The notes beneath the pieces were generated by a model that had not been told where the DNA came from, searched no databases, and was given only the letters and a program-made list of their open reading frames with translations. Below are positions 2,830 through 9,574 of a DNA stretch of 38,738 bases, in pieces. Source of the stretch: a virus; IMG/VR virus record IMGVR_UViG_3300034069_001386, positions 1 to 38,738 of that record; one strand, written 5' to 3'. Every line of letters begins with the position of its first letter. The first letter of the stretch is position 1. The position numbers were made by a program, and so were the translations under genes.

Positions 2830-3126
2830 CTACGAGCGCACATGCCGCTCGTACGCCCCGTGCGTGACCGACGCGTGCTGATGCCGCACCACTGACTGCT
2901 CGAGGAACCGCGCCCAGATCGCTTCCGCGGCCGCGTCACCGTTCGAAAACGGGCCGAGGTCCTCCTCGGCGCACCACGCCCGGAACTCGGGCCCCTGCCG
3001 GCGCACGACCCCGATCGGTGTCGACGGCTGCACGGGATACACGAGCTCCCACTCGGTCGGCTCGATTGTCCACGGACGCTCCCCCACGCCTGCGCACGGT
3101 ACCCGCGCGCCATGACACCGCCCCAT
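2830..3126 (-). CDS. Hypothetical protein (98 aa; alternative GTG start at 3087 gives 85 aa)
   Basis: 3' part of track ORF 2830..3270. The coding-like part is ERPWTIEPTEWELVYPVQPSTPIGVVRRQGPEFRAWCAEEDLGPF... It is divergent from the holin gene. Confidence 0.45.
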   Translation of the reverse strand: MGRCHGARVPCAGVGERPWTIEPTEWELVYPVQPSTPIGVVRRQGPEFRAWCAEEDLGPFSNGDAAAEAIWARFLEQSVVRHQHASVTHGAYERHVRS

Positions 3127-3139
3127 GAACGGAGCCCAC

Positions 3140-3601
3140 ATGAACAGCGCCCTCACGAAGTACGCGGCCGCCCTCATCCAGATCGCGATCGTCCTCGTCG
3201 CCGCACTCGCGCAGCTCACCGGCCGCGTGACACTCGTCGACGCCCTGCAGCTCATCGCGCTCGGCGCCAACGCGCTGCTGGTCTACCTCGTGCCCCTCTT
3301 CGGTGCAGCGATGCGCTCCGGCTGGAAGACCGGGGTCGCCGTGCTCGGCGCCCTGATCGCCGCCGGTATCCCCTTCGCGACCGTGCACCACATCACCGGC
3401 TCCCAGATCGCGGTCGTGCTCCTCGCCGGCCTGCAAGTCCTCGGTGCCCACATCGGTGTCCAGATCCGCAACGCTGCCACCAACGGGACGACGTCGGGCG
3501 AAACGCCTCAGCAAGCGGCCGTCGAACCGCCGACCGTCACGACGATCAACCGCGCCGTCAGCACGAACGGCGGCGAGTTCATCGGAGAGTCGGCCCGCTG
3601 A
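3140..3601 (+). CDS. Holin-like multi-pass membrane protein (153 aa; alternative ATG at 3125)
   Basis: Four hydrophobic segments. GGAG lies 8 nt upstream of ATG 3140. The stop overlaps the endolysin ATG. Confidence 0.6.
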   Translation: MNSALTKYAAALIQIAIVLVAALAQLTGRVTLVDALQLIALGANALLVYLVPLFGAAMRSGWKTGVAVLGALIAAGIPFATVHHITGSQIAVVLLAGLQVLGAHIGVQIRNAATNGTTSGETPQQAAVEPPTVTTINRAVSTNGGEFIGESAR

Positions 3602-4341
3602 TGCTGCCCTTCACTCTCGACGAGACCCGCACCCGCGAGCTCGCTCACGTCAACACGATCGGCCGGCCGAACGGCTGGTGGCCCGGGGGCGCCCTCACCA
3701 ACGACTGCGTCGGCTACCAGACCACACAGCTCGGCCTCCGCACCGGCCGCGAGAGCCTCGCCTGGCTCGGCGCGCACCCGCACATGATCTCGATCGCCGC
3801 GTTCCGCGCGCACTACCAGTGGCCAGAGGTGCCCGCGCACACGATCCGGCCCGGTGACCTCGTCATCTCGAACTGGACCGGCCTCCGCCTCGACGGCGAG
3901 CTCGAGGCGGAACACATGGAGTGGGCGTACTCCGTCGCCGAGTCATCGCTGGTGATCATCGGCGCGAACACCGGCCCGGCACCGGGTACCCCGACACCCA
4001 ACGGTGTCTGGCGGAAGATCCGGCCCATCAACGAGCACATCCTGTTCGGCATCCGTCCGCCGTACAAGGACGAGAAGCCTTCCTTGTCCCGCAAGCACGT
4101 TGTAAAGGTCGTCGCCGGCTACACGAACCGGCAGGACCTCGGCAGCATCCCGACGAGTACCGCGGCCGGTCCCGGGAAGGAGACCGGGATCGAGGGCCCG
4201 AACTACTGGCGCCGCGTCCAGACGTGGGCGCGGAAGCACGGCTACTACCCCCACGAGTTTGTCATCGACGGGATCCCGGGGAAGCAGTCCCGCATCGGCG
4301 AGGCTGCCGCGTACAAGGCGGCCACCGCGAAGAAGAAGTGA
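3601..4341 (+). CDS. Endolysin: CHAP/NlpC-P60-like cysteine peptidase plus C-terminal peptidoglycan-binding-like repeat
   Basis: NDCVGYQ (Cys), RPGDLVISNW and EHMEWAY (His) fit a CHAP-like triad layout. C-terminal YWRRVQTWARKHGYYPHEFVIDGIPGKQSRIGEAAAYKAA resembles PG_binding_1. Sits next to the holin. Confidence 0.75.
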   Translation: MLPFTLDETRTRELAHVNTIGRPNGWWPGGALTNDCVGYQTTQLGLRTGRESLAWLGAHPHMISIAAFRAHYQWPEVPAHTIRPGDLVISNWTGLRLDGELEAEHMEWAYSVAESSLVIIGANTGPAPGTPTPNGVWRKIRPINEHILFGIRPPYKDEKPSLSRKHVVKVVAGYTNRQDLGSIPTSTAAGPGKETGIEGPNYWRRVQTWARKHGYYPHEFVIDGIPGKQSRIGEAAAYKAATAKKK

Positions 4342-4882: not shown

Positions 4883-5088
4883 TCGTCCGCGACCCGAAGT
4901 CGGACCTGTTCATCGCGATCTGCACGGGGTGCGGGATGCGTGAGCACATCGACTCGGACACCGGGTTCGGTGCCGCGTCGCTCGCGTCCGGCGCCGGCTG
5001 GTCGCTCGGCTTGCGGGACCTGTGCCGCGACTGTCGTCCCTCGGAGGACGCCGGGCGCAAGGTGCGGCGTGCCCGCAGTTCTGCCTGA
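4879..5088 (+). CDS. Small Cys4 (zinc-ribbon-like) protein (69 aa)
   Basis: CTGCG ... CRDC pairs. Internal ATG of track ORF 4834..5088. Confidence 0.45.
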   Translation: MIVRDPKSDLFIAICTGCGMREHIDSDTGFGAASLASGAGWSLGLRDLCRDCRPSEDAGRKVRRARSSA

Positions 5089-5280
5089 TCGGGAGACACT
5101 TCCCTGGTCCCCCGGCAGGCGTACTGCCTCCGGCCGCTCGTAGATGGATCTGGGGGGATCAACGAGCGGCCGGGAGGCGATGCACGGGCGGAGGAAACCC
5201 GCTCCCAGTGTCCCCCAAGGTGGGCACAGTCCGGTACCCCCAGTCTCTGATTCGTTCGCGCCGCGGGAGCGTGAACTACT

Positions 5281-5320
5281 GCAGCCCTGCTGCGCTCGAC
5301 GTCGAGCGCAGCAGGGCTGC
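5281..5320. terminator. 40-bp perfect palindrome (20-bp stem) followed by TTT; bidirectional terminator candidate
   Basis: GCAGCCCTGCTGCGCTCGAC/GTCGAGCGCAGCAGGGCTGC read directly. Lies 6 nt from the stop of the minus-strand operon (5326) and at the end of the plus-strand lysis unit. Confidence 0.7.
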
Positions 5321-5325
5321 TTTCG

Positions 5326-5577
5326 TCATGTCCGGACGAGAGCGAGGAAGTCCCGGTGGAGGGCTCGCAGGTTCTCGACGTCGAATTCGTCCCAGCCGTG
5401 ACGGGCGGCCAGCTCGCCCATGGCGTCCTCGTCGGGAGAATCGTCGTCGTCCCAGCCGACGATGATTCCCCAGAGCCAGGCATCGACCTTCTGCGCGCCC
5501 CAGTCCCGGCTGTTGAAGATGAGGGCGTTGCGGAGCGCCTCGACCGCGCTCTCCGTGGTTCGCCATGTCTTGCTCAC
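5326..5577 (-). CDS. Very acidic Trp-rich protein (83 aa), function unknown
   Basis: GTG start overlaps the TGA of the RHH gene (GTGA). Contains WGIIVGWDDDDSPDEDAMGELAARHGWDEFD. High GC3. Confidence 0.6.
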   Translation of the reverse strand: MSKTWRTTESAVEALRNALIFNSRDWGAQKVDAWLWGIIVGWDDDDSPDEDAMGELAARHGWDEFDVENLRALHRDFLALVRT

Positions 5578-5726
5578 CGCACGTACCGCTCGAGCGCGCG
5601 CCGGACGACGTCGGTGAGCGTCTCGCCTTTCTCGGCGGCCTTGACCTGGGCGGCTCTGTAGAGGTCCTCGGGGATCCGGAACGACTTCATCGGCGTGCGG
5701 GGCGCGTTCGGGGACACGCGGCCCAT
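5574..5726 (-). CDS. Ribbon-helix-helix (CopG/Arc/MetJ-type) DNA-binding protein (50 aa)
   Basis: MKSFRIPEDLYRAAQVKAAEKGETLTDVVRRALERYV is a textbook RHH pattern (beta strand, helix, GxT, helix). Confidence 0.7.
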   Translation of the reverse strand: MGRVSPNAPRTPMKSFRIPEDLYRAAQVKAAEKGETLTDVVRRALERYVR

Positions 5727-5740
5727 CGTCCCACGTGTCA

Positions 5741-6166
5741 TTACAGGTCGACCTGCTCGATCCACTCGACCTTGAGTCGCACTGCGAACGGCAGGCCCTC
5801 GTCGGTCTTCCCGTACAGCTCGATGGCGTCCGTCTCGCCGGCGATGTCCGACTCGGTGATCTCGAAGGGACCACGCCAGTCCCATCCGATGGGGACGGCC
5901 TTGATGATGTCGAGCGGCGTCGGCAGCTTGCGCGCCCGCATCTGTGCGTAGGTCCGCACGAGTTTGAGGTGGCTCTCGCGGCCTTCCATGCCACCAGCTC
6001 CGCGGTCCGGCTGCGACAGCGAATACACAGGCTCGCCGACCTGCTCGACAGCGTCGTCGTAGGCGAACTCGACGACGTAGAGCTGTCCCTCGCGAAGGTC
6101 GAAGTCGGGCCCGATGGCACGCACCTCGTCGCCCTCGTGGAACTTGAACTGCGCCTCTGGTGTCAT
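5741..6166 (-). CDS. Hypothetical protein (141 aa; in-frame alternative ATG at 6190)
   Basis: The ATG lies in the centre of palindrome copy 1. TATTCT (-10-like) lies exactly 6 nt upstream, so a leaderless mRNA is plausible. High GC3. Confidence 0.65.
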   Translation of the reverse strand: MTPEAQFKFHEGDEVRAIGPDFDLREGQLYVVEFAYDDAVEQVGEPVYSLSQPDRGAGGMEGRESHLKLVRTYAQMRARKLPTPLDIIKAVPIGWDWRGPFEITESDIAGETDAIELYGKTDEGLPFAVRLKVEWIEQVDL

Positions 6167-6172
6167 GACACC
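6159..6172. promoter_or_regulatory. Operator-like palindrome copy 1: GGTGTCATGACACC (perfect 14 bp)
   Basis: Read directly. The central CAT/ATG is the start codon of minus-strand gene 5741..6166. Confidence 0.7.
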
Positions 6173-6182
6173 AGAATAGGGA

Positions 6183-6195
6183 GGTGTCATGACAC
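6183..6195. promoter_or_regulatory. Operator-like palindrome copy 2: GGTGTCATGACAC (12-bp perfect core)
   Basis: Read directly. Preceded by AGGGAGG. Its ATG opens an 11-codon micro-ORF (6189..6224) whose TGA overlaps the ATG at 6221. Confidence 0.65.
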
Positions 6196-6214
6196 TGCGC
6201 AAGAGCGAACACTG

Positions 6215-6227
6215 GGTGTCATGACAC
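6215..6227. promoter_or_regulatory. Operator-like palindrome copy 3: GGTGTCATGACAC (12-bp perfect core)
   Basis: Read directly. The central ATG is the start codon of plus-strand gene 6221..6403. Confidence 0.7.
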
Positions 6228-6403
6228 AGGCACAGATCCGCGAGGCCCTCGCTGAGGCGCAGATCGTCCTCGCCGCCATCACCGAACTCGGTGAGCGCAT
6301 CGCCGCAGGCGCCGTCGACGACGGGACCCGCGACGAGCTCGCAACCGACCTCTACTTCGGGGCCGCACGCCTCGCTGCGTTCGCGGGCCAGGTGGCGGCA
6401 TGA
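6221..6403 (+). CDS. Hypothetical helical protein (60 aa), first gene of the ParB operon
   Basis: The ATG lies inside palindrome copy 3. The stop overlaps the ParB ATG (ATGA). Confidence 0.5.
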   Translation: MTQAQIREALAEAQIVLAAITELGERIAAGAVDDGTRDELATDLYFGAARLAAFAGQVAA

Positions 6404-7341
6404 GCACCGCGACCTCGTCCCTAGAGTTCCTCCTCGCCCGTGCCGCGGTCCGCTCCGACGCGGTCATGCACATCGTGTCCCGCCGCGACAGCGGCCTCCT
6501 CAACCCGATCTGCGCCGCGCACCCGATCCGGTCCCAGAAGATCGACGAGTGGGCCACGGTCCCCGCCGACCTCTCCGCACTCTGCTCGGACTGCGCCGCG
6601 ATCGCCGCCGGCATCAAGGGCGTGCCCTCCGTCGAGGTCGGCATCGCCGTGTTCCTCGGCGGCGACACCGACGGCGCACCCGTCTCACTGCTCACCGAGG
6701 TACCGATCACCTCGATCGACCTCGCGCCGGCACACGCACGCCGCACCCCCGGTGACGTCGACGACCTCATCGCATCCGTCACCGAGCGCGGTGTCGTCAC
6801 CCCCGTGCTGCTGCGCCGGGTCGGCGGCCGGTTCGAGGTCATCGACGGCGCCCGCCGCCTCTACGCCGCACACAAGGCCGGCCGCACCACCGTGCCTGCC
6901 ATCGTCCGCGACACCACCGACAGCGACGCGCTCCTCGACGCCCTCACCGCGAACCTGCACCGCACCGACCTGAACCCGATCGACCAGGCCCACGCCTACC
7001 AGCACGCGATCGTCACGCTCGGGCTGCAGTCGAAGGCGGAGCTCGGGCGGCTGCTCGGGATCTCGCGGGAGAAGGTGTCGAACACGATCCGCCTCCTCGA
7101 CCTCCCCGCGGAGGAGCAGGACGCGATCGCGCGTGGCGAGCTCACGGTCGAGGCGGGCCGGAAGCTGCTCGCCGCCCCCAAGGCGCCGGCCGAGGATCTG
7201 CCTGACGTGGCCGGGCTGCTCGCGGAGCTGCTCGCCGCGAAGGTCGCCGTCACTTCCCGCGGGGGCAAGACGCGGATCGTCATCGCCGTCGCAGACGCTG
7301 AGGCGGAGCGGATCCTCGGGCGGCTCAGCGCCGCGGCCTGA
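6400..7341 (+). CDS. parB: ParB/Spo0J-family protein with about 95-aa N-terminal extension; no ParA partner in the genome
   Basis: FEVIDGARRLYAAHKAG (GxxR box), LNPIDQAHAY, HTH KAELGRLLGISREKVSNTIRLL, and a C-terminal TRIVIAVADAEAERILGRL dimerisation-like end. Confidence 0.8.
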   Translation: MSTATSSLEFLLARAAVRSDAVMHIVSRRDSGLLNPICAAHPIRSQKIDEWATVPADLSALCSDCAAIAAGIKGVPSVEVGIAVFLGGDTDGAPVSLLTEVPITSIDLAPAHARRTPGDVDDLIASVTERGVVTPVLLRRVGGRFEVIDGARRLYAAHKAGRTTVPAIVRDTTDSDALLDALTANLHRTDLNPIDQAHAYQHAIVTLGLQSKAELGRLLGISREKVSNTIRLLDLPAEEQDAIARGELTVEAGRKLLAAPKAPAEDLPDVAGLLAELLAAKVAVTSRGGKTRIVIAVADAEAERILGRLSAAA

Positions 7342-7344
7342 GCT

Positions 7345-7373
7345 ACTTAGCGGAACGCACGTGCCACTTAGCG
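7345..7373. repeat. Two direct ACTTAGCG octamers 21 bp apart, flanking the palindrome GCACGTGC
   Basis: Read directly. Lies immediately after the parB stop. Confidence 0.6.
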
Positions 7374-7383
7374 AGCGTCGGTG

Positions 7384-7405
7384 GTTTCAAGTACGTTTCG
7401 AGTAG
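7384..7405. repeat. Tandem 11-bp repeat GTTTCAAGTAC / GTTTCGAGTAG
   Basis: Read directly. Sits in a locally AT-richer non-coding stretch. Confidence 0.6.
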
Positions 7406-7449
7406 GTCCTGGAGCAGCGCCGGCTAGTCGTCGCGAAGAGCGGGGACCA

Positions 7450-7466
7450 GAGACGTTCAGCGTCTC
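7450..7466. terminator. Hairpin GAGACG-ttcag-CGTCTC
   Basis: Read directly. Lies between convergent parB and the DUF4236-like gene. Confidence 0.4.
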
Positions 7467-7471
7467 GACTC

Positions 7472-7509
7472 CTGATGGCCCGGCCGGGAATGCTCAGCCG
7501 GGCCATCAG
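7472..7509. terminator. Hairpin with perfect 13-bp stem (CTGATGGCCCGGC ... GCCGGGCCATCAG, 12-nt loop)
   Basis: Read directly. Lies 14 nt from the stop of minus-strand gene 7523..7822. Confidence 0.65.
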
Positions 7510-7522
7510 TGTGCGAGGACGC

Positions 7523-7822
7523 TCAGGGGCGCTTGCGCTGCCTCATCGAGCGCACTACGCCGGCGATCACCACGCCGACCACGAAGGCCGAGGCGATGAT
7601 GCCGAAGCCCACCGCCGGCAGGAGCAGTGCGAGCAGGGTCCCGGCCACGATCGCGCCGGCAACAATGAACACCTCGACGGGCGCGAGCGGCGGCACGGGC
7701 CGCCTGCGGCTATGACTGTCGGGAGAGTAGGACACGGGTCCGACACGGATACTGCTCCGTAGGCCGCTCCTGCCGACCGAGACCCGGAACGGGCCGAGCC
7801 CGCCTCCGATGCGAAGACCCAT
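7523..7822 (-). CDS. Membrane protein with DUF4236-like N-terminus (99 aa)
   Basis: MGLRIGGGLGPFRVSVGRSGLRSSIRVGPVSYS resembles the DUF4236 pattern. The C-terminus has two hydrophobic helices. Internal start of track ORF 7523..8047. Confidence 0.55.
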   Translation of the reverse strand: MGLRIGGGLGPFRVSVGRSGLRSSIRVGPVSYSPDSHSRRRPVPPLAPVEVFIVAGAIVAGTLLALLLPAVGFGIIASAFVVGVVIAGVVRSMRQRKRP

Positions 7823-7880
7823 CAGCGGACTGACTCGCGGCTGACCATGGCGGCAGCATGCCCTAACTTGTGCGCATTCA

Positions 7881-8696
7881 TCAGGCGACGCTCTCGAAGC
7901 CGGTCGCAGTCGCGTCCGCAACAGCCCGCAACGCGGCCTCGTCGACGTGCAGGTACCGCTGGGTCGTCGCGATGCTCGCGTGCCCGAGGAGCTCCTGCAC
8001 GGCCCGCAGGTCGCGGGTTGCCCGGTAGGCGGCGGTGGCGCCGGCATGACGGAGGCTGTGCGGGTTCCAGCCGGTGCGCGCCTGGATCGTGTGGTGGATC
8101 ACGTCGGCGGACAGGTGACCGCCGTTCCCGTCTGGGAAGTAGTAGTCCCCGGGGTTGACGCGCTCGAGCTCGAGGAGGGCGTCCATCAGCATCGGGTTGA
8201 TCGGCACGCGTCGCTGCTTCTCGCCCTTGCCGAGTACGCGGAGGTGACCGTGGTCGCGGTGCCGACTGTGCAGGGTGGCGATCTCGTTGCGCCGGAGGCA
8301 GCCGAAGCGGGCTAGCAGGATGATCGCCCGGTCGCGGGTGCTGGCGCCCAGCAGTGCGAGCTGGATGTCGGCGTCGACTGCCACACGGGGCACCGTCATC
8401 GTCTTGCGGACGGGCGCGAGCCGGGCAGAGGGGTCGCGGGGGATGTACTCCTCTTCGAATGCCCAGGCGTAGAACAGCCGCAGTGCGGTGCGGATGGATG
8501 CCCGGGTCTCGGCCTTGTGAGTGAGCCGGCGGGCGGCGAGGAAGCCTTCGAGCTCGACGCGACCGACAGCGAGGAGGTCGCTGTGTTCGGCAGCGAACTG
8601 CCGGAGATAGACGAGGCGGAGGCGGACGGTTCCTGCGCTGCGTCCTGCAGCGAGGAGATGGTTCGAGAACTGTTCGAGGAGAACGTCGGTGTTCAT
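7881..8696 (-). CDS. int: Tyrosine integrase (XerC/D-like, 271 aa; a TTG at 8759 is an alternative start)
   Basis: Catalytic pattern: ARFGCLRRNE (R), GKGEKQRRVP (K), HSLRHAGAT (HxxR), LLGHASIATTQRYLH (H..Y). SAM-like N-terminal core-binding domain with no obvious arm-binding domain. Confidence 0.85.
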   Translation of the reverse strand: MNTDVLLEQFSNHLLAAGRSAGTVRLRLVYLRQFAAEHSDLLAVGRVELEGFLAARRLTHKAETRASIRTALRLFYAWAFEEEYIPRDPSARLAPVRKTMTVPRVAVDADIQLALLGASTRDRAIILLARFGCLRRNEIATLHSRHRDHGHLRVLGKGEKQRRVPINPMLMDALLELERVNPGDYYFPDGNGGHLSADVIHHTIQARTGWNPHSLRHAGATAAYRATRDLRAVQELLGHASIATTQRYLHVDEAALRAVADATATGFESVA

Positions 8697-8808
8697 AAGT
8701 GTGGGTAGCCGTTCGACAGGCCCGTGCCGGGTAGCACGGGAGAGATGGACTCGCCGCAACTGACAGCGAGAGGAACATACGTTCGAAACTGGACGCGCAA
8801 ACCGACCT

Positions 8809-8825
8809 CCCTAGGTTTCCCTAGG
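8809..8825. repeat. Two CCCTAGG heptamers 10 bp apart, between the repressor stop and the integrase start
   Basis: Read directly. Confidence 0.5.
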
Positions 8826-8848
8826 CAAGGGTGCTCGCGAGTGCAGAT

Positions 8849-9229
8849 TCAGGCGGCTGCGACACCACTTTCTGCATGTTGCGAGAGTTGTAACCACCGT
8901 GTTACAGGCAGCACTCCGTTGCCCGTCTCCGGGGAGGCGTCCGAGTGCTCGCCACCGTCAGGCCCATAAGGGGTCTGCGGTAGTTCACCTGTTCGAATCC
9001 AGTCGACGTCGACGCCTGTGGCGAGGGCCCAGGCGTTGAGCACAATGGCTCGCATCTTGTCGGCCGGCGTCTTCTCGAGCTCGTAGTTCGTGACGGTGCC
9101 TCGGGAGACACCGATGAGGTCGGCGAAGCGTGCAGCGTCCATCTCGGGGCCCAGCTGGGTGCGGGCGAGGCGCAGGCGCCATCCGATGGTGAACTGCGGG
9201 TAACGCCGATCATGGGTATTGATCGTCAT
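8849..9229 (-). CDS. XRE/cI-type HTH repressor (126 aa from ATG 9229; GTG 9235 alternative) with a disordered C-terminal tail ending VAAA
   Basis: HTH_3 pattern IGWRLRLARTQLGPEMDAARFADLIGVSRGTVTNYE ... VDVDWIRTGE. The last 17 or so codons switch to rare A/T-ending codons. Confidence 0.75.
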   Translation of the reverse strand: MTINTHDRRYPQFTIGWRLRLARTQLGPEMDAARFADLIGVSRGTVTNYELEKTPADKMRAIVLNAWALATGVDVDWIRTGELPQTPYGPDGGEHSDASPETGNGVLPVTRWLQLSQHAESGVAAA

Positions 9230-9241
9230 GTGCACAAGCTA
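9230..9241 (-). promoter_or_regulatory. Putative -10 (TAGCTT) plus 6-nt spacer GTGCAC directly abutting ATG 9229 (leaderless layout)
   Basis: The minus strand reads TAGCTTGTGCACATG. Same 15-nt architecture as at 10630-10644. Confidence 0.45.
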
Positions 9242-9246
9242 GAGCG

Positions 9247-9266
9247 CTTGCGCACTCCTGCGCAAG
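9247..9266. promoter_or_regulatory. 20-bp palindromic operator CTTGCGCA-ctcc-TGCGCAAG (outer arms AGAGCG/CGCTCT extend it to 9241-9276)
   Basis: Read directly. Overlaps a TTGACT (-35-like) on the minus strand upstream of the repressor gene. Confidence 0.6.
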
Positions 9267-9409
9267 TCAACGCTCTGCCGTGACCCCGAGATGCCCGCAG
9301 CAGCACCAGAAGACTTCGTGCAAGGCAGGCACTTCTCGCGGGCGACTGCAAGCGCTGTGGCGCTCAAGCCCACAGTTCCAGCAGCTTCGGTTTCCTCGAC
9401 TTGATGAGT

Positions 9410-9574
9410 TCATCGCTGGTCCGTCGCCCCGAGGAGCAGGGCTCCGATTGCCACATCAAGCGCGAGAGCAGATCGCCGGACCTCAGAGCTAGACGCATGC
9501 TCGACCGCGCGACGGAGAGCCCACTGCATGATGCGGGCCTCCTCCCGAGTGAAGGAAAGACAGATTCTTTCCAT
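9410..9574 (-). CDS. Hypothetical mini-protein (54 aa), low GC3
   Basis: Hand translation gives MERICLSFTREEARIMQWALRRAVEHASSSEVRRSALALDVAIGALLLGATDQR. The ATG shares one base with the upstream TGA (TGATG). Below the track cutoff. Confidence 0.45.
   Translation of the reverse strand: MERICLSFTREEARIMQWALRRAVEHASSSEVRRSALALDVAIGALLLGATDQR

Follow-up and report, generated by a model that had tools for sequence, protein, structure and literature searches.

Palindromes centred on divergent start codons in an uncultivated temperate actinophage genome: putative operators of a small ribbon-helix-helix protein

Which protein recognizes the palindromes packed between two divergent operons of an uncultivated virus (IMG/VR record IMGVR_UViG_3300034069_001386), and how can the same sequences also hold the start codons of both operons? 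The window, i.e., the whole stretch of DNA analyzed here, is a contig of 38,738 bp with 69% GC that encodes a terminase, a portal protein, a major head protein, RecT, an excisionase-like protein, a tyrosine integrase and a CI-like repressor; it is a complete or near-complete genome of a temperate phage with an actinobacterial host, and its closest identifiable relatives occur in Amnibacterium genomes. The leftward operon consists of genes for proteins of 141, 55 and 83 amino acids (aa), the second of which is a ribbon-helix-helix (RHH) protein, and the rightward operon encodes a 60-aa protein and an orphan ParB-like protein. The evidence presented below makes it likely that the palindromes are operators of the RHH protein.

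The 13-mer GGTGTCATGACAC occurs in the window at 6159-6171, 6183-6195 and 6215-6227 and nowhere else; sequence reading and a repeat finder agree that the copies are 100% identical, with centre-to-centre distances of 24 and 32 bp. Copy 1 extends to the perfect 14-bp palindrome GGTGTCATGACACC, position 14 being the only difference in copies 2 and 3. This description matches the first-pass annotation of the region, and so does the dismissal of chance: when sites with up to one mismatch are counted, the 10-bp core TGTCATGACA occurs four times against a shuffle mean of 0.63, a count of four was reached in 0 of 100 shuffles, and GGTGTNNNNACACC occurs once against 0.03 expected. The stoperators of cluster A mycobacteriophages are asymmetric 13-bp sites that are present in 20-30 copies throughout the genome and oriented with transcription. 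The sites in the window are palindromic and confined to a single 69-bp region plus one decayed copy, which rules out sites of this type.

Co-occurrence of the palindrome and an RHH gene

Two candidate binders had been named in the first-pass annotation, the RHH protein and the ParB-like protein, and the relatives of the two proteins differ sharply in the sites that they carry. Ten loci encoding relatives of the ParB-like protein (L003-L007, L082, L162-L165; 42-83% identity) share the recognition helix sequence SNTIRLL and keep both the small MT... gene coupled to the ParB gene and a divergent regulator gene, and none of them contains TGTCATGACA. The divergent regulator in all ten is a Cro/CI-type HTH_3 protein or another small helix-turn-helix protein, and the intergenic repeats differ (e.g., GTAGCG-N5-GCTAC, or CTTAGGAC-CT-GTCCTAAG); a k-mer comparison across ParB-family loci for a common parS-like palindrome returned just coding-sequence k-mers and generic GC-rich palindromes. 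Three other loci, L231, its duplicate L232, and L233, encode a divergent RHH protein 76-78% identical to that of the window and carry three copies of GGTGTCATGACAC in the same order; L231 additionally encodes a ParB protein 57% identical to that of the window. Because the palindrome is kept in these RHH-bearing loci and is absent from the ten ParB relatives, it follows the RHH gene and not the ParB gene. The RHH protein accordingly stands as a credible binder, whereas the ParB-like protein, whose relatives have the same recognition helix, does not.

An exact scan of IMG/VR for two copies of TGTCATGACA located 10-40 bp apart yielded 65 loci, 38 with GC of at least 60% and 27 with low GC. An RHH model built solely from close homologues detected the protein in 14 of the 38 high-GC loci, in 0 of the 27 low-GC loci and in 0 of 153 background actinobacterial loci (1.1 Mb in total), and a broadened model in 34 of the 38 high-GC loci versus 0/153 in the background. 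In 25 loci the RHH open reading frame (ORF) itself contains the palindrome, at its MT... start. By contrast with the RHH protein, relatives of the ParB-like, 141-aa and 60-aa proteins are encoded in none of the motif-selected viral loci (ParB: 0/65). The reverse approach, in which L240-L244 were fetched by RHH identity with the motif disregarded (L243 duplicates L242), showed that all of these loci bear near-consensus GGTGT-N4-ACACC sites flanking a TAnnnT -10 hexamer, with TTGnnn 17-18 nt upstream.

The 27 low-GC loci with paired or multiple TGTCATGACA (including L167-L169, L172, L173, L176, L178, L183, L185, L186, L189 and L192, as well as L199, L205-L207, L223 and L227) often present it within longer TGACA-rich repeats, and with one exception lack an RHH protein of the window's family; these sites presumably belong to an unrelated regulator.

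By sequence and fold, the 55-aa protein belongs to the RHH (Arc/MetJ/CopG) repressor family. It matches phrog_6506, annotated as 'Arc-like repressor' (E = 1.5e-15), and its 45 homologues are mostly 48-72 aa long and mostly start with MT; several members of a second subfamily pass the Pfam RHH_1 cut-off, with 24.8 bits for family members. A profile search against PDB placed omega, AvtR, DinJ and ParG at the top, with the omega repressor (2bnw/1irq) as the best match (E = 6e-4), the DNA-contacting strand KTVRV of omega being aligned with KSFRI. The AF2 model contains helices at residues 25-37 and 42-54 with pLDDT of 84-92. The gene had been placed at 5574-5726; this is five codons short, because homologues mostly start with MT(R/P)GT and the same frame opens at 5741. 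Initiation at the ATG 5741-5739 gives a 55-aa protein that is 98% identical to P0102, with the start codon inside what had been called a degenerate copy of the palindrome and forming a TAATG overlap with the stop codon of the 141-aa gene.

Anatomy of the sites, promoters and start codons

The CAT at 6164-6166 is the start of the 141-aa ORF and the ATG at 6221 that of the 60-aa ORF, so the two outer palindromes (O1 and O3; O2 is the middle one) supply divergent start codons, as originally noted; homologue N-termini are co-linear from both ATGs. The 141-aa homologue P0002 begins with VTELKFKEGDEV versus MTPEAQFKFHEGDEV in the window, supporting the start at 6166, and the 60-aa homologues begin with MTKAQIDAALAEAQ versus MTQAQIREALAEAQ, supporting that at 6221; MTKAQIDAAL opens the 60-aa homologues in L003, L163, L164 and L165. 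In L231 and L233, the copy equivalent to O3 likewise bears the ATG of the small gene.

The hexamers TATTCT and AACACT, which had been pointed out 6 and 7 nt before these ATGs, are indeed at these positions. In L231 and L233, TATTCT is found 6 nt before one outer ATG, with TTGCGG or TTGCTG, respectively, 18 nt upstream of it; other equivalents of the window's TTGCGC are TTGCGT (L242), TTGACG (L241) and TTGCGC (L244). The counterparts of AACACT, AACACT in L231 and AATCCT in L233, are located 6 nt before the other outer ATG. In the ParB relatives with other regulators, TANNNT or nAnnnT stands at leaderless spacing before the small gene. Shine-Dalgarno sequences precede most structural genes of the window and are absent from the 141-aa and 60-aa genes. 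In Mycobacterium tuberculosis, TANNNT is centred 7-12 nt upstream of 73% of the primary transcription starts, a -35 consensus was not found, and leaderless mRNAs are extensive (PMC3898074). Judged by sequence, the leftward gene fits a leaderless promoter (TATTCT at -12..-7) and the rightward gene fits weakly (AACACT at -13..-8).

The same layout emerges from a tally that pools the high-GC viral loci with the window, L231 and L233 (40 distinct loci): TANNNT at -12..-7 or -13..-8 precedes 43 of the 80 palindrome ATGs whose ORF runs for 45 aa or more, versus 2 of the 92 whose ORF is shorter than 30 aa (Fisher's test, 6e-16, a value that overstates independence because the loci are related). The proposal of leaderless transcripts, originally made from hexamer spacing alone, thus gains support from the conservation of the -10 hexamers at that spacing in L231 and L233. 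The predicted leaderless starts of both operons are well supported by comparison, and both operons very probably begin at palindrome centres.

A scan for E. coli-type promoters and terminators over 5200-7600 returned nothing, this consensus being uninformative for actinobacterial promoters.

Copy 2 does not carry the start of either operon. The first-pass annotation assigned to it an 11-codon micro-ORF, and the ORF, the AGGGAGG in front of it and the overlap of its TGA with the downstream ATG all exist, but the overlap is automatic given the TCATGA core, the micro-ORF lacks a -10 hexamer at leaderless spacing, and it is not conserved in L231 and L233, where the reading frame differs because the O2-O3 spacing is 31 bp. 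The micro-ORF is probably incidental. The left half of O2, GTGTCA, lies 18 nt upstream of the rightward -10 hexamer, and the position of O2 relative to both -10 hexamers is the same in the window, L231 and L233. Copy 2 is better read as an operator that is situated in the leftward -35/-10 spacer and over the -35 position of the rightward promoter.

Beyond these close relatives, sites flank the -10 hexamer and cover the +1 of the RHH operon in L241, L242, L244 and about 25 viral loci, as they do in the window, L231 and L233. In L241, L242 and L244, the order is a -35 hexamer (TTGACG, TTGCGT and TTGCGC, respectively), an operator within the 17-18-nt spacer, a -10 hexamer (TAGGTT, TAGCGT and TAGCAT) and a second operator at +1. 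The RHH gene is the fourth or fifth of the operon in these three loci, and its start codon still lies within a near-consensus site; a site is present at the RHH start codon in L241-L244, not in L240. Over the 40 distinct loci, the consensus is GGTGTCATGACACC, and the site spacing has a main mode of 24-27 bp and a second mode of 31-36 bp, with a third site often found within the RHH coding region, about 33 bp from its start.

The arms GGTGT and ACACC are invariant, and the centres include CATG, TATG, CATA, AACG, GATG, AATG, ATCT and ATGT. Because the arms are invariant while the four central bases vary, recognition appears to be carried by the arms, with the centre left free. In L241, the +1 operator, GGTGTCATAACACC, is without an ATG on the coding strand, and the gene starts 20 nt downstream, led by AGGAGG. 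We infer that the placement of a start codon in the operator centre is an optional, opportunistic use of the site.

A decayed fourth site overlaps the RHH start codon. The earlier claim of a degenerate copy at 5735-5744 holds insofar as the sequence exists, but the match extends to only 10 of 14 positions, and the sequence sits on the true RHH start rather than in front of the gene. Relatives carry sites at the same place (GCGTCATGACACG in L231 and L234, ACGTCATGACACG in L233, GGTGTGATGACACC in L242 and GGTGTAATGACACC in L244), and the fourth copy is the decayed remnant of such a site. Taken alone, it is within chance (about 0.6 extra core matches are expected at one mismatch), and we rejected it as an independent operator in view of the 10/14 match and the loss of the central C. 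Elsewhere in the window, the sequence CGCGCCATGACACC at 3106-3119 has a perfect right half-site, ATGACACC, at the ATG 3112 near the start of the gene at 3125-3601; this is within chance expectation for a match with three mismatches.

A longer RHH subfamily (75-92 aa; L170, L177, L191, L195, L209-L211, L220, L222 and others) contains CHDT or RHDT about 10 residues from the N-terminus. A third operator copy, TGTCATGACAC, which lies about 33 bp past the RHH start, encodes this tetrapeptide when read in frame; as read from the DNA, the putative operator is here written into the protein itself.

Cultivated phages whose RHH proteins are 35-56% identical to that of the window (BritBrat, Mbo4, GMA1, Hedwig and Ramsey) do not carry the motif. 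In Gordonia phage Hedwig (L238), three GGTGC-N4/5-GCACC sites precede an Arc-like gene (gp36), a trio analogous to that of the window, and in L240 a sequence of the same GGTGC-N4/5-GCACC family, GGTGCCATGCACC at 3940-4030, precedes a distant RHH paralogue. This suggests that Hedwig and L240 possess RHH/operator pairs of the same design with diverged specificity.

In the model that we propose, two divergent actinobacterial promoters would be accommodated within 69 bp. The leftward promoter would comprise TTGCGC (6202-6197), an 18-nt spacer with O2, TATTCT (6178-6173) and 6 nt in front of A6166 at the O1 centre, and the rightward promoter would comprise GTGTCA (the left half of O2), an 18-nt spacer, AACACT (6208-6213) and 7 nt in front of A6221 at the O3 centre; both mRNAs would be leaderless, the first base being the A of the ATG at a palindrome centre. 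O1 and O3 would cover the +1 and start codon of the leftward and rightward operons, respectively, and O2 would occupy the leftward spacer and the rightward -35 position, such that RHH dimers on the three sites would turn both operons off. The result would be negative autoregulation of the RHH gene together with cargo genes, and repression of the small-protein/ParB-like operon.

Recognition would probably proceed mainly via the arms GGTGT and ACACC, with the central four bases, because they vary among relatives, free to accommodate an ATG, readable on one strand or on both, as well as a TGA stop. Each site may be occupied either by one RHH dimer on the dyad or by one per 7-bp half. What the sequences show directly is the anatomy of the region, the extent to which it is conserved, and that palindrome and RHH gene occur together; that the protein binds, whether it represses, where transcription starts and how many dimers occupy a site are predictions. 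The original idea of a divergent control region in which a bound protein would cover promoter, transcription start and start codon is supported.

Several observations weigh against this assignment. Part of the training set of the broadened RHH model consisted of ten ORFs (longer subfamily) taken from motif-selected loci, and the locus statistics rest on related, non-independent loci. The window RHH protein scores 18.3 bits against Pfam RHH_1, under the cut-off of 20.5; its ten fold matches are all RHH proteins, yet they are non-significant (E >= 3); and the strand residues give no clean split between palindrome-bearing RHH proteins and those of cultivated phages without the palindrome. The rightward -10 hexamer AACACT is poor, and neither promoter passes the E. 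coli-type consensus scan. Finally, with spacings of 24 and 32 bp, not all of the sites fall on the same face of the helix.

Alternative readings and the variable genes

It is improbable that the palindromes are primarily recombination or module-boundary sequences for the exchange of cargo genes, even though the mosaic structure of the operon invites this interpretation. In alignments of the window with L231 and L233, homology spans the operator array and ends exactly after O1, resumes exactly at the RHH start, with its site, and stops again at the RHH stop codon; unrelated genes occupy the slots between the sites in different phages, genes 3' of the RHH gene differ among L231, L233 and L234, and the genes inserted in L231 and in L233, although unrelated, share the ending ...CGTCATGA, which reads into the site. 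However, mosaic junctions are to be expected there anyway, because gene boundaries coincide with palindromes in leaderless genes; for this reason, the homology breaks are compatible with recombination at the sites but leave it unproven. Furthermore, the fixed placement of the sites relative to the -10 and -35 hexamers and the combination of conserved arms with a variable centre point to transcription control, and so does L241, which has a Shine-Dalgarno-led gene and keeps operators without a coding-strand ATG. Recombination is best treated as a possible secondary role.

An extension of the RHH-operator reading that takes up this role, and that we put forward only tentatively, is that the RHH protein contacts the arms only and the uncontacted CATG has been co-opted as a two-strand start codon with a TGA for coupling stop to start, doubling as a cargo-swap junction. 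If so, a single 14-bp element would combine the roles of operator, transcription start, start codon and stop codon, and an M-T-(P/R/Q) N-terminus would be imposed on every protein launched from it; because the element marks each gene boundary, it would also serve as a junction for cargo exchange in RHH-controlled operons of many high-GC phage lineages.

The 141-aa gene illustrates the variability of the cargo. Its sole homologue, 58% identical, is found in the Logan contigs L001/L002, in an unrelated early-gene cluster after a DUF2283 gene, where the RHH gene and the palindrome are both absent, a context that fits the idea of mobile cargo. A tblastn search of phages with the 141-aa protein gave no match, and PADLOC and NCBIfam assigned no function to the 141-aa, 83-aa or 60-aa proteins and recognized no known defence family among the cargo proteins.

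A similarly low probability attaches to the sites being operators of some other protein, namely the CI-like repressor (8849-9235), the 141-aa protein or a host transcription factor. A 14-bp palindrome is a typical target of a helix-turn-helix dimer too, and a host factor would be compatible with the sequence. Nevertheless, the CI-like gene has its own, different repeat beside its start and no TGTCATGACA-like site there; the 141-aa protein, with a single homologue in a motif-free context and none in the viral loci, is too rare for a general binder; and a host factor would not account for why the sites stay so closely linked to the RHH gene in diverse phages. The CI-like gene itself has TAGCTT 6 nt before the ATG 9229, a leaderless layout, and probably starts at this ATG (MTINTHD...) rather than at an upstream GTG; the inverted repeat CTTGCGCA-N4-TGCGCAAG just upstream of the start (9229-9266) is likely the operator of this gene.

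A parS centromere or autoregulatory operator of the ParB-like protein is very unlikely, notwithstanding the position of the sites immediately upstream of the operon and the ParB_N and HTH_ParB domains of its product. ParB proteins do recognize palindromic sites, and autoregulation from upstream sites is common among partition operons. In the present case, the recognition helix SNTIRLL is invariant among full-length relatives (44-83% identical), yet the ten relatives (up to 83% identical) carry other inverted repeats, and none of the 65 paired-palindrome viral loci encodes a relative of the protein. Moreover, the canonical 16-bp parS TGTTNCACGTGAAACA has no match in the window at up to three mismatches, no ParA-like deviant Walker A motif is present in any frame of the window, and no ParA families appear in the gene tables of the examined relatives. 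The ParB-like protein is probably regulated cargo and not the binder. In this family, translational coupling to a small gene just upstream is universal, and every member faces a dedicated regulator gene on the divergent side, the type of which varies. The N-terminal domain of the family, about 70 aa, contains invariant H24, C38, C62 and C65 and looks like a zinc-binding module.

Scarcely credible is an action at the RNA level, with hairpins or the micro-ORF coupled to the small gene attenuating or coupling translation: a short hairpin is possible for each copy if transcribed, and the AGGGAGG before O2 and the TGA overlapping the ATG 6221 would suit coupling, but only half of each palindrome would be present in RNA if transcripts start at palindrome centres, O2 lacks a -10 hexamer at leaderless spacing, the micro-ORF is not conserved in L231/L233, and the spacings of 24-27 bp elsewhere show no preference for multiples of three.

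The features discussed above are collected in Table 1.

Table 1. Features of the divergent control region and the adjacent operons
Feature	Positions	Strand	Remarks
83-aa gene, third of leftward operon	5326..5577	-	GTGA overlap with RHH stop; variable cargo position
RHH (Arc/CopG/omega-like) protein, 55 aa, MTRGTMGRV...	5574..5741	-	second gene of leftward operon
Decayed fourth site, CCTGTAATGACACG on minus strand	5734..5747	no strand	10/14 positions match; overlaps RHH start codon
141-aa gene, first of leftward operon	5741..6166	-	variable cargo position: 51-53 aa in L231, ~130 aa in L233
Putative operator O1, GGTGTCATGACACC	6159..6172	no strand	centre = start codon and predicted +1 of leftward operon; conserved in L231, L233
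-10 hexamer TATTCT, predicted leftward promoter	6173..6178	-	6 nt before A6166; identical in L231, L233
Putative operator O2, GGTGTCATGACACT	6183..6196	no strand	inside 18-nt spacer of predicted leftward promoter
Micro-ORF, 11 codons, opened by O2	6189..6224	+	TGA overlaps ATG 6221; AGGGAGG precedes O2
-35-like TTGCGC, predicted leftward promoter	6197..6202	-	18 nt upstream of TATTCT
Weak -10-like AACACT, predicted rightward promoter	6208..6213	+	7 nt before A6221
Putative operator O3, GGTGTCATGACACA	6215..6228	no strand	centre = start codon and predicted +1 of rightward small-gene/ParB-like operon
60-aa small protein, first gene of rightward operon	6221..6403	+	ATGA overlap with ParB-like gene
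Orphan ParB-like protein, 313 aa	6400..7341	+	ParB_N and HTH_ParB; conserved N-terminal His/Cys-rich domain

Around these operons, a perfect 40-bp palindrome with 20-nt arms and no loop, GCAGCCCTGCTGCGCTCGAC|GTCGAGCGCAGCAGGGCTGC, is located at 5281-5320, just beyond the stop codon of the 83-aa gene (5326), and may be the terminator of the leftward operon or another protein-binding site. Downstream of the ParB-like gene, the approximately 180 bp at 7345-7520 are AT-richer by eye and could hold attP; no tRNA genes were found in the window. Between the ParB-like gene and the integrase, the minus strand at 7523-7826 contains an unlisted ORF; its product of about 100 aa, MGLRIGGGLGPFRVSV..., has a membrane-spanning segment at the C-terminus. 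Searches of IMG/VR with the ParB-like and 141-aa proteins found no relatives, and megablast of 5000-9500 against GenBank phages found no match.

Comparison with known regulatory systems

The presence of the module in at least 40 distinct uncultivated phage loci indicates that it is a general device and not a curiosity of one genome. A likely regulator and its logic can now be assigned to unannotated genes of temperate actinophages, including the orphan ParB-like operon, which is always under a dedicated local repressor. With leaderless mRNAs, regulatory signals could be compressed so far that 14 bp accommodate a repressor site, a transcription start and the start codons of both divergent genes, the operator thereby dictating the first residues of the proteins, and the module is a candidate for a very compact repressible bidirectional expression cassette for Actinobacteria. 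Literature searches with TGTCATGACA and GTGTCATGACAC matched unrelated primers and sequences only and yielded no description of the module, subscription journals being outside their coverage. The first-pass annotation had judged the design unprecedented; no paper describing it was found, but it recurs in dozens of uncultivated high-GC phage contigs.

Arc and Mnt of the phage P22 immI region are RHH repressors, and Arc, bound to one operator situated between two overlapping divergent promoters, represses both, including transcription of its own gene. This operator spans 21 bp, its half-sites are separated by about 11 bp, the start codons lie outside it, the transcripts have leaders and the host is an enterobacterium. 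The window shares with this system a phage RHH protein, predicted to act over divergent promoters, and differs in the multiple putative operators, the predicted lack of leaders and the start codons inside the sites. The OR region of phage lambda, with the leaderless cI transcript from P_RM, and the mycobacteriophage BPs-type switches, with leaderless repressor transcripts, resemble the layout predicted for the window in the tripartite or multiple operator between divergent promoters, in at least one transcript that starts at the start codon and in an autoregulated repressor. However, their repressors are helix-turn-helix proteins, in neither system do the start codons of both genes form the operator centres, and they are the main immunity switches, whereas a CI-like gene, accompanied by a different repeat, is encoded separately in the window phage.

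Among RHH proteins outside phages of this kind, omega (pSM19035/inc18) is also a small dimer with sites over several promoters. Omega dimers each bind one 7-bp repeat overlapping promoters, two adjacent repeats giving high affinity (PMC9499535), and the 14-bp palindrome of the window can be read as two 7-bp halves. Unlike the discrete 14-bp palindromes of the window, which are 10-18 bp apart, the omega sites consist of 7-10 heptads WATCACW that are non-palindromic and directly abut one another; the arm sequences differ; omega partners ParA (delta) as a centromere binder, whereas ParA is absent from the window; and genes regulated by omega have not been reported to start inside the sites. A type Ib partition centromere of the omega/ParG type was likewise rejected for the window, where there is no ParA and the 14-bp units are 24-34 bp apart instead of forming contiguous heptads.

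The C-proteins of restriction-modification systems are small autoregulators with palindromic C-boxes immediately upstream of a leaderless start (PMC2632904, PMC2175313), but they are helix-turn-helix activator-repressors, the boxes are upstream of the start codon rather than centred on it, and the arrangement is not divergent. The RHH antitoxins of type II toxin-antitoxin operons are similar to the model proposed for the window protein in that a small RHH protein autoregulates via palindromes over its own promoter, and many type II antitoxin transcripts are leaderless in mycobacteria (PMC8485053). In contrast to these operons, library scans recognized no toxin after the window RHH gene, the flanking genes vary, and a divergent ParB-like operon would also be controlled.

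Taken together, these comparisons separate a familiar part of the system from a variant one. An RHH autorepressor with multiple operators over divergent promoters is familiar, and a repressor over the +1 is conventional, which limits the surprise. The new part, a variant on these themes, is an operator with a free centre, found in at least 40 phage loci and centred on the predicted leaderless start codons of both genes.

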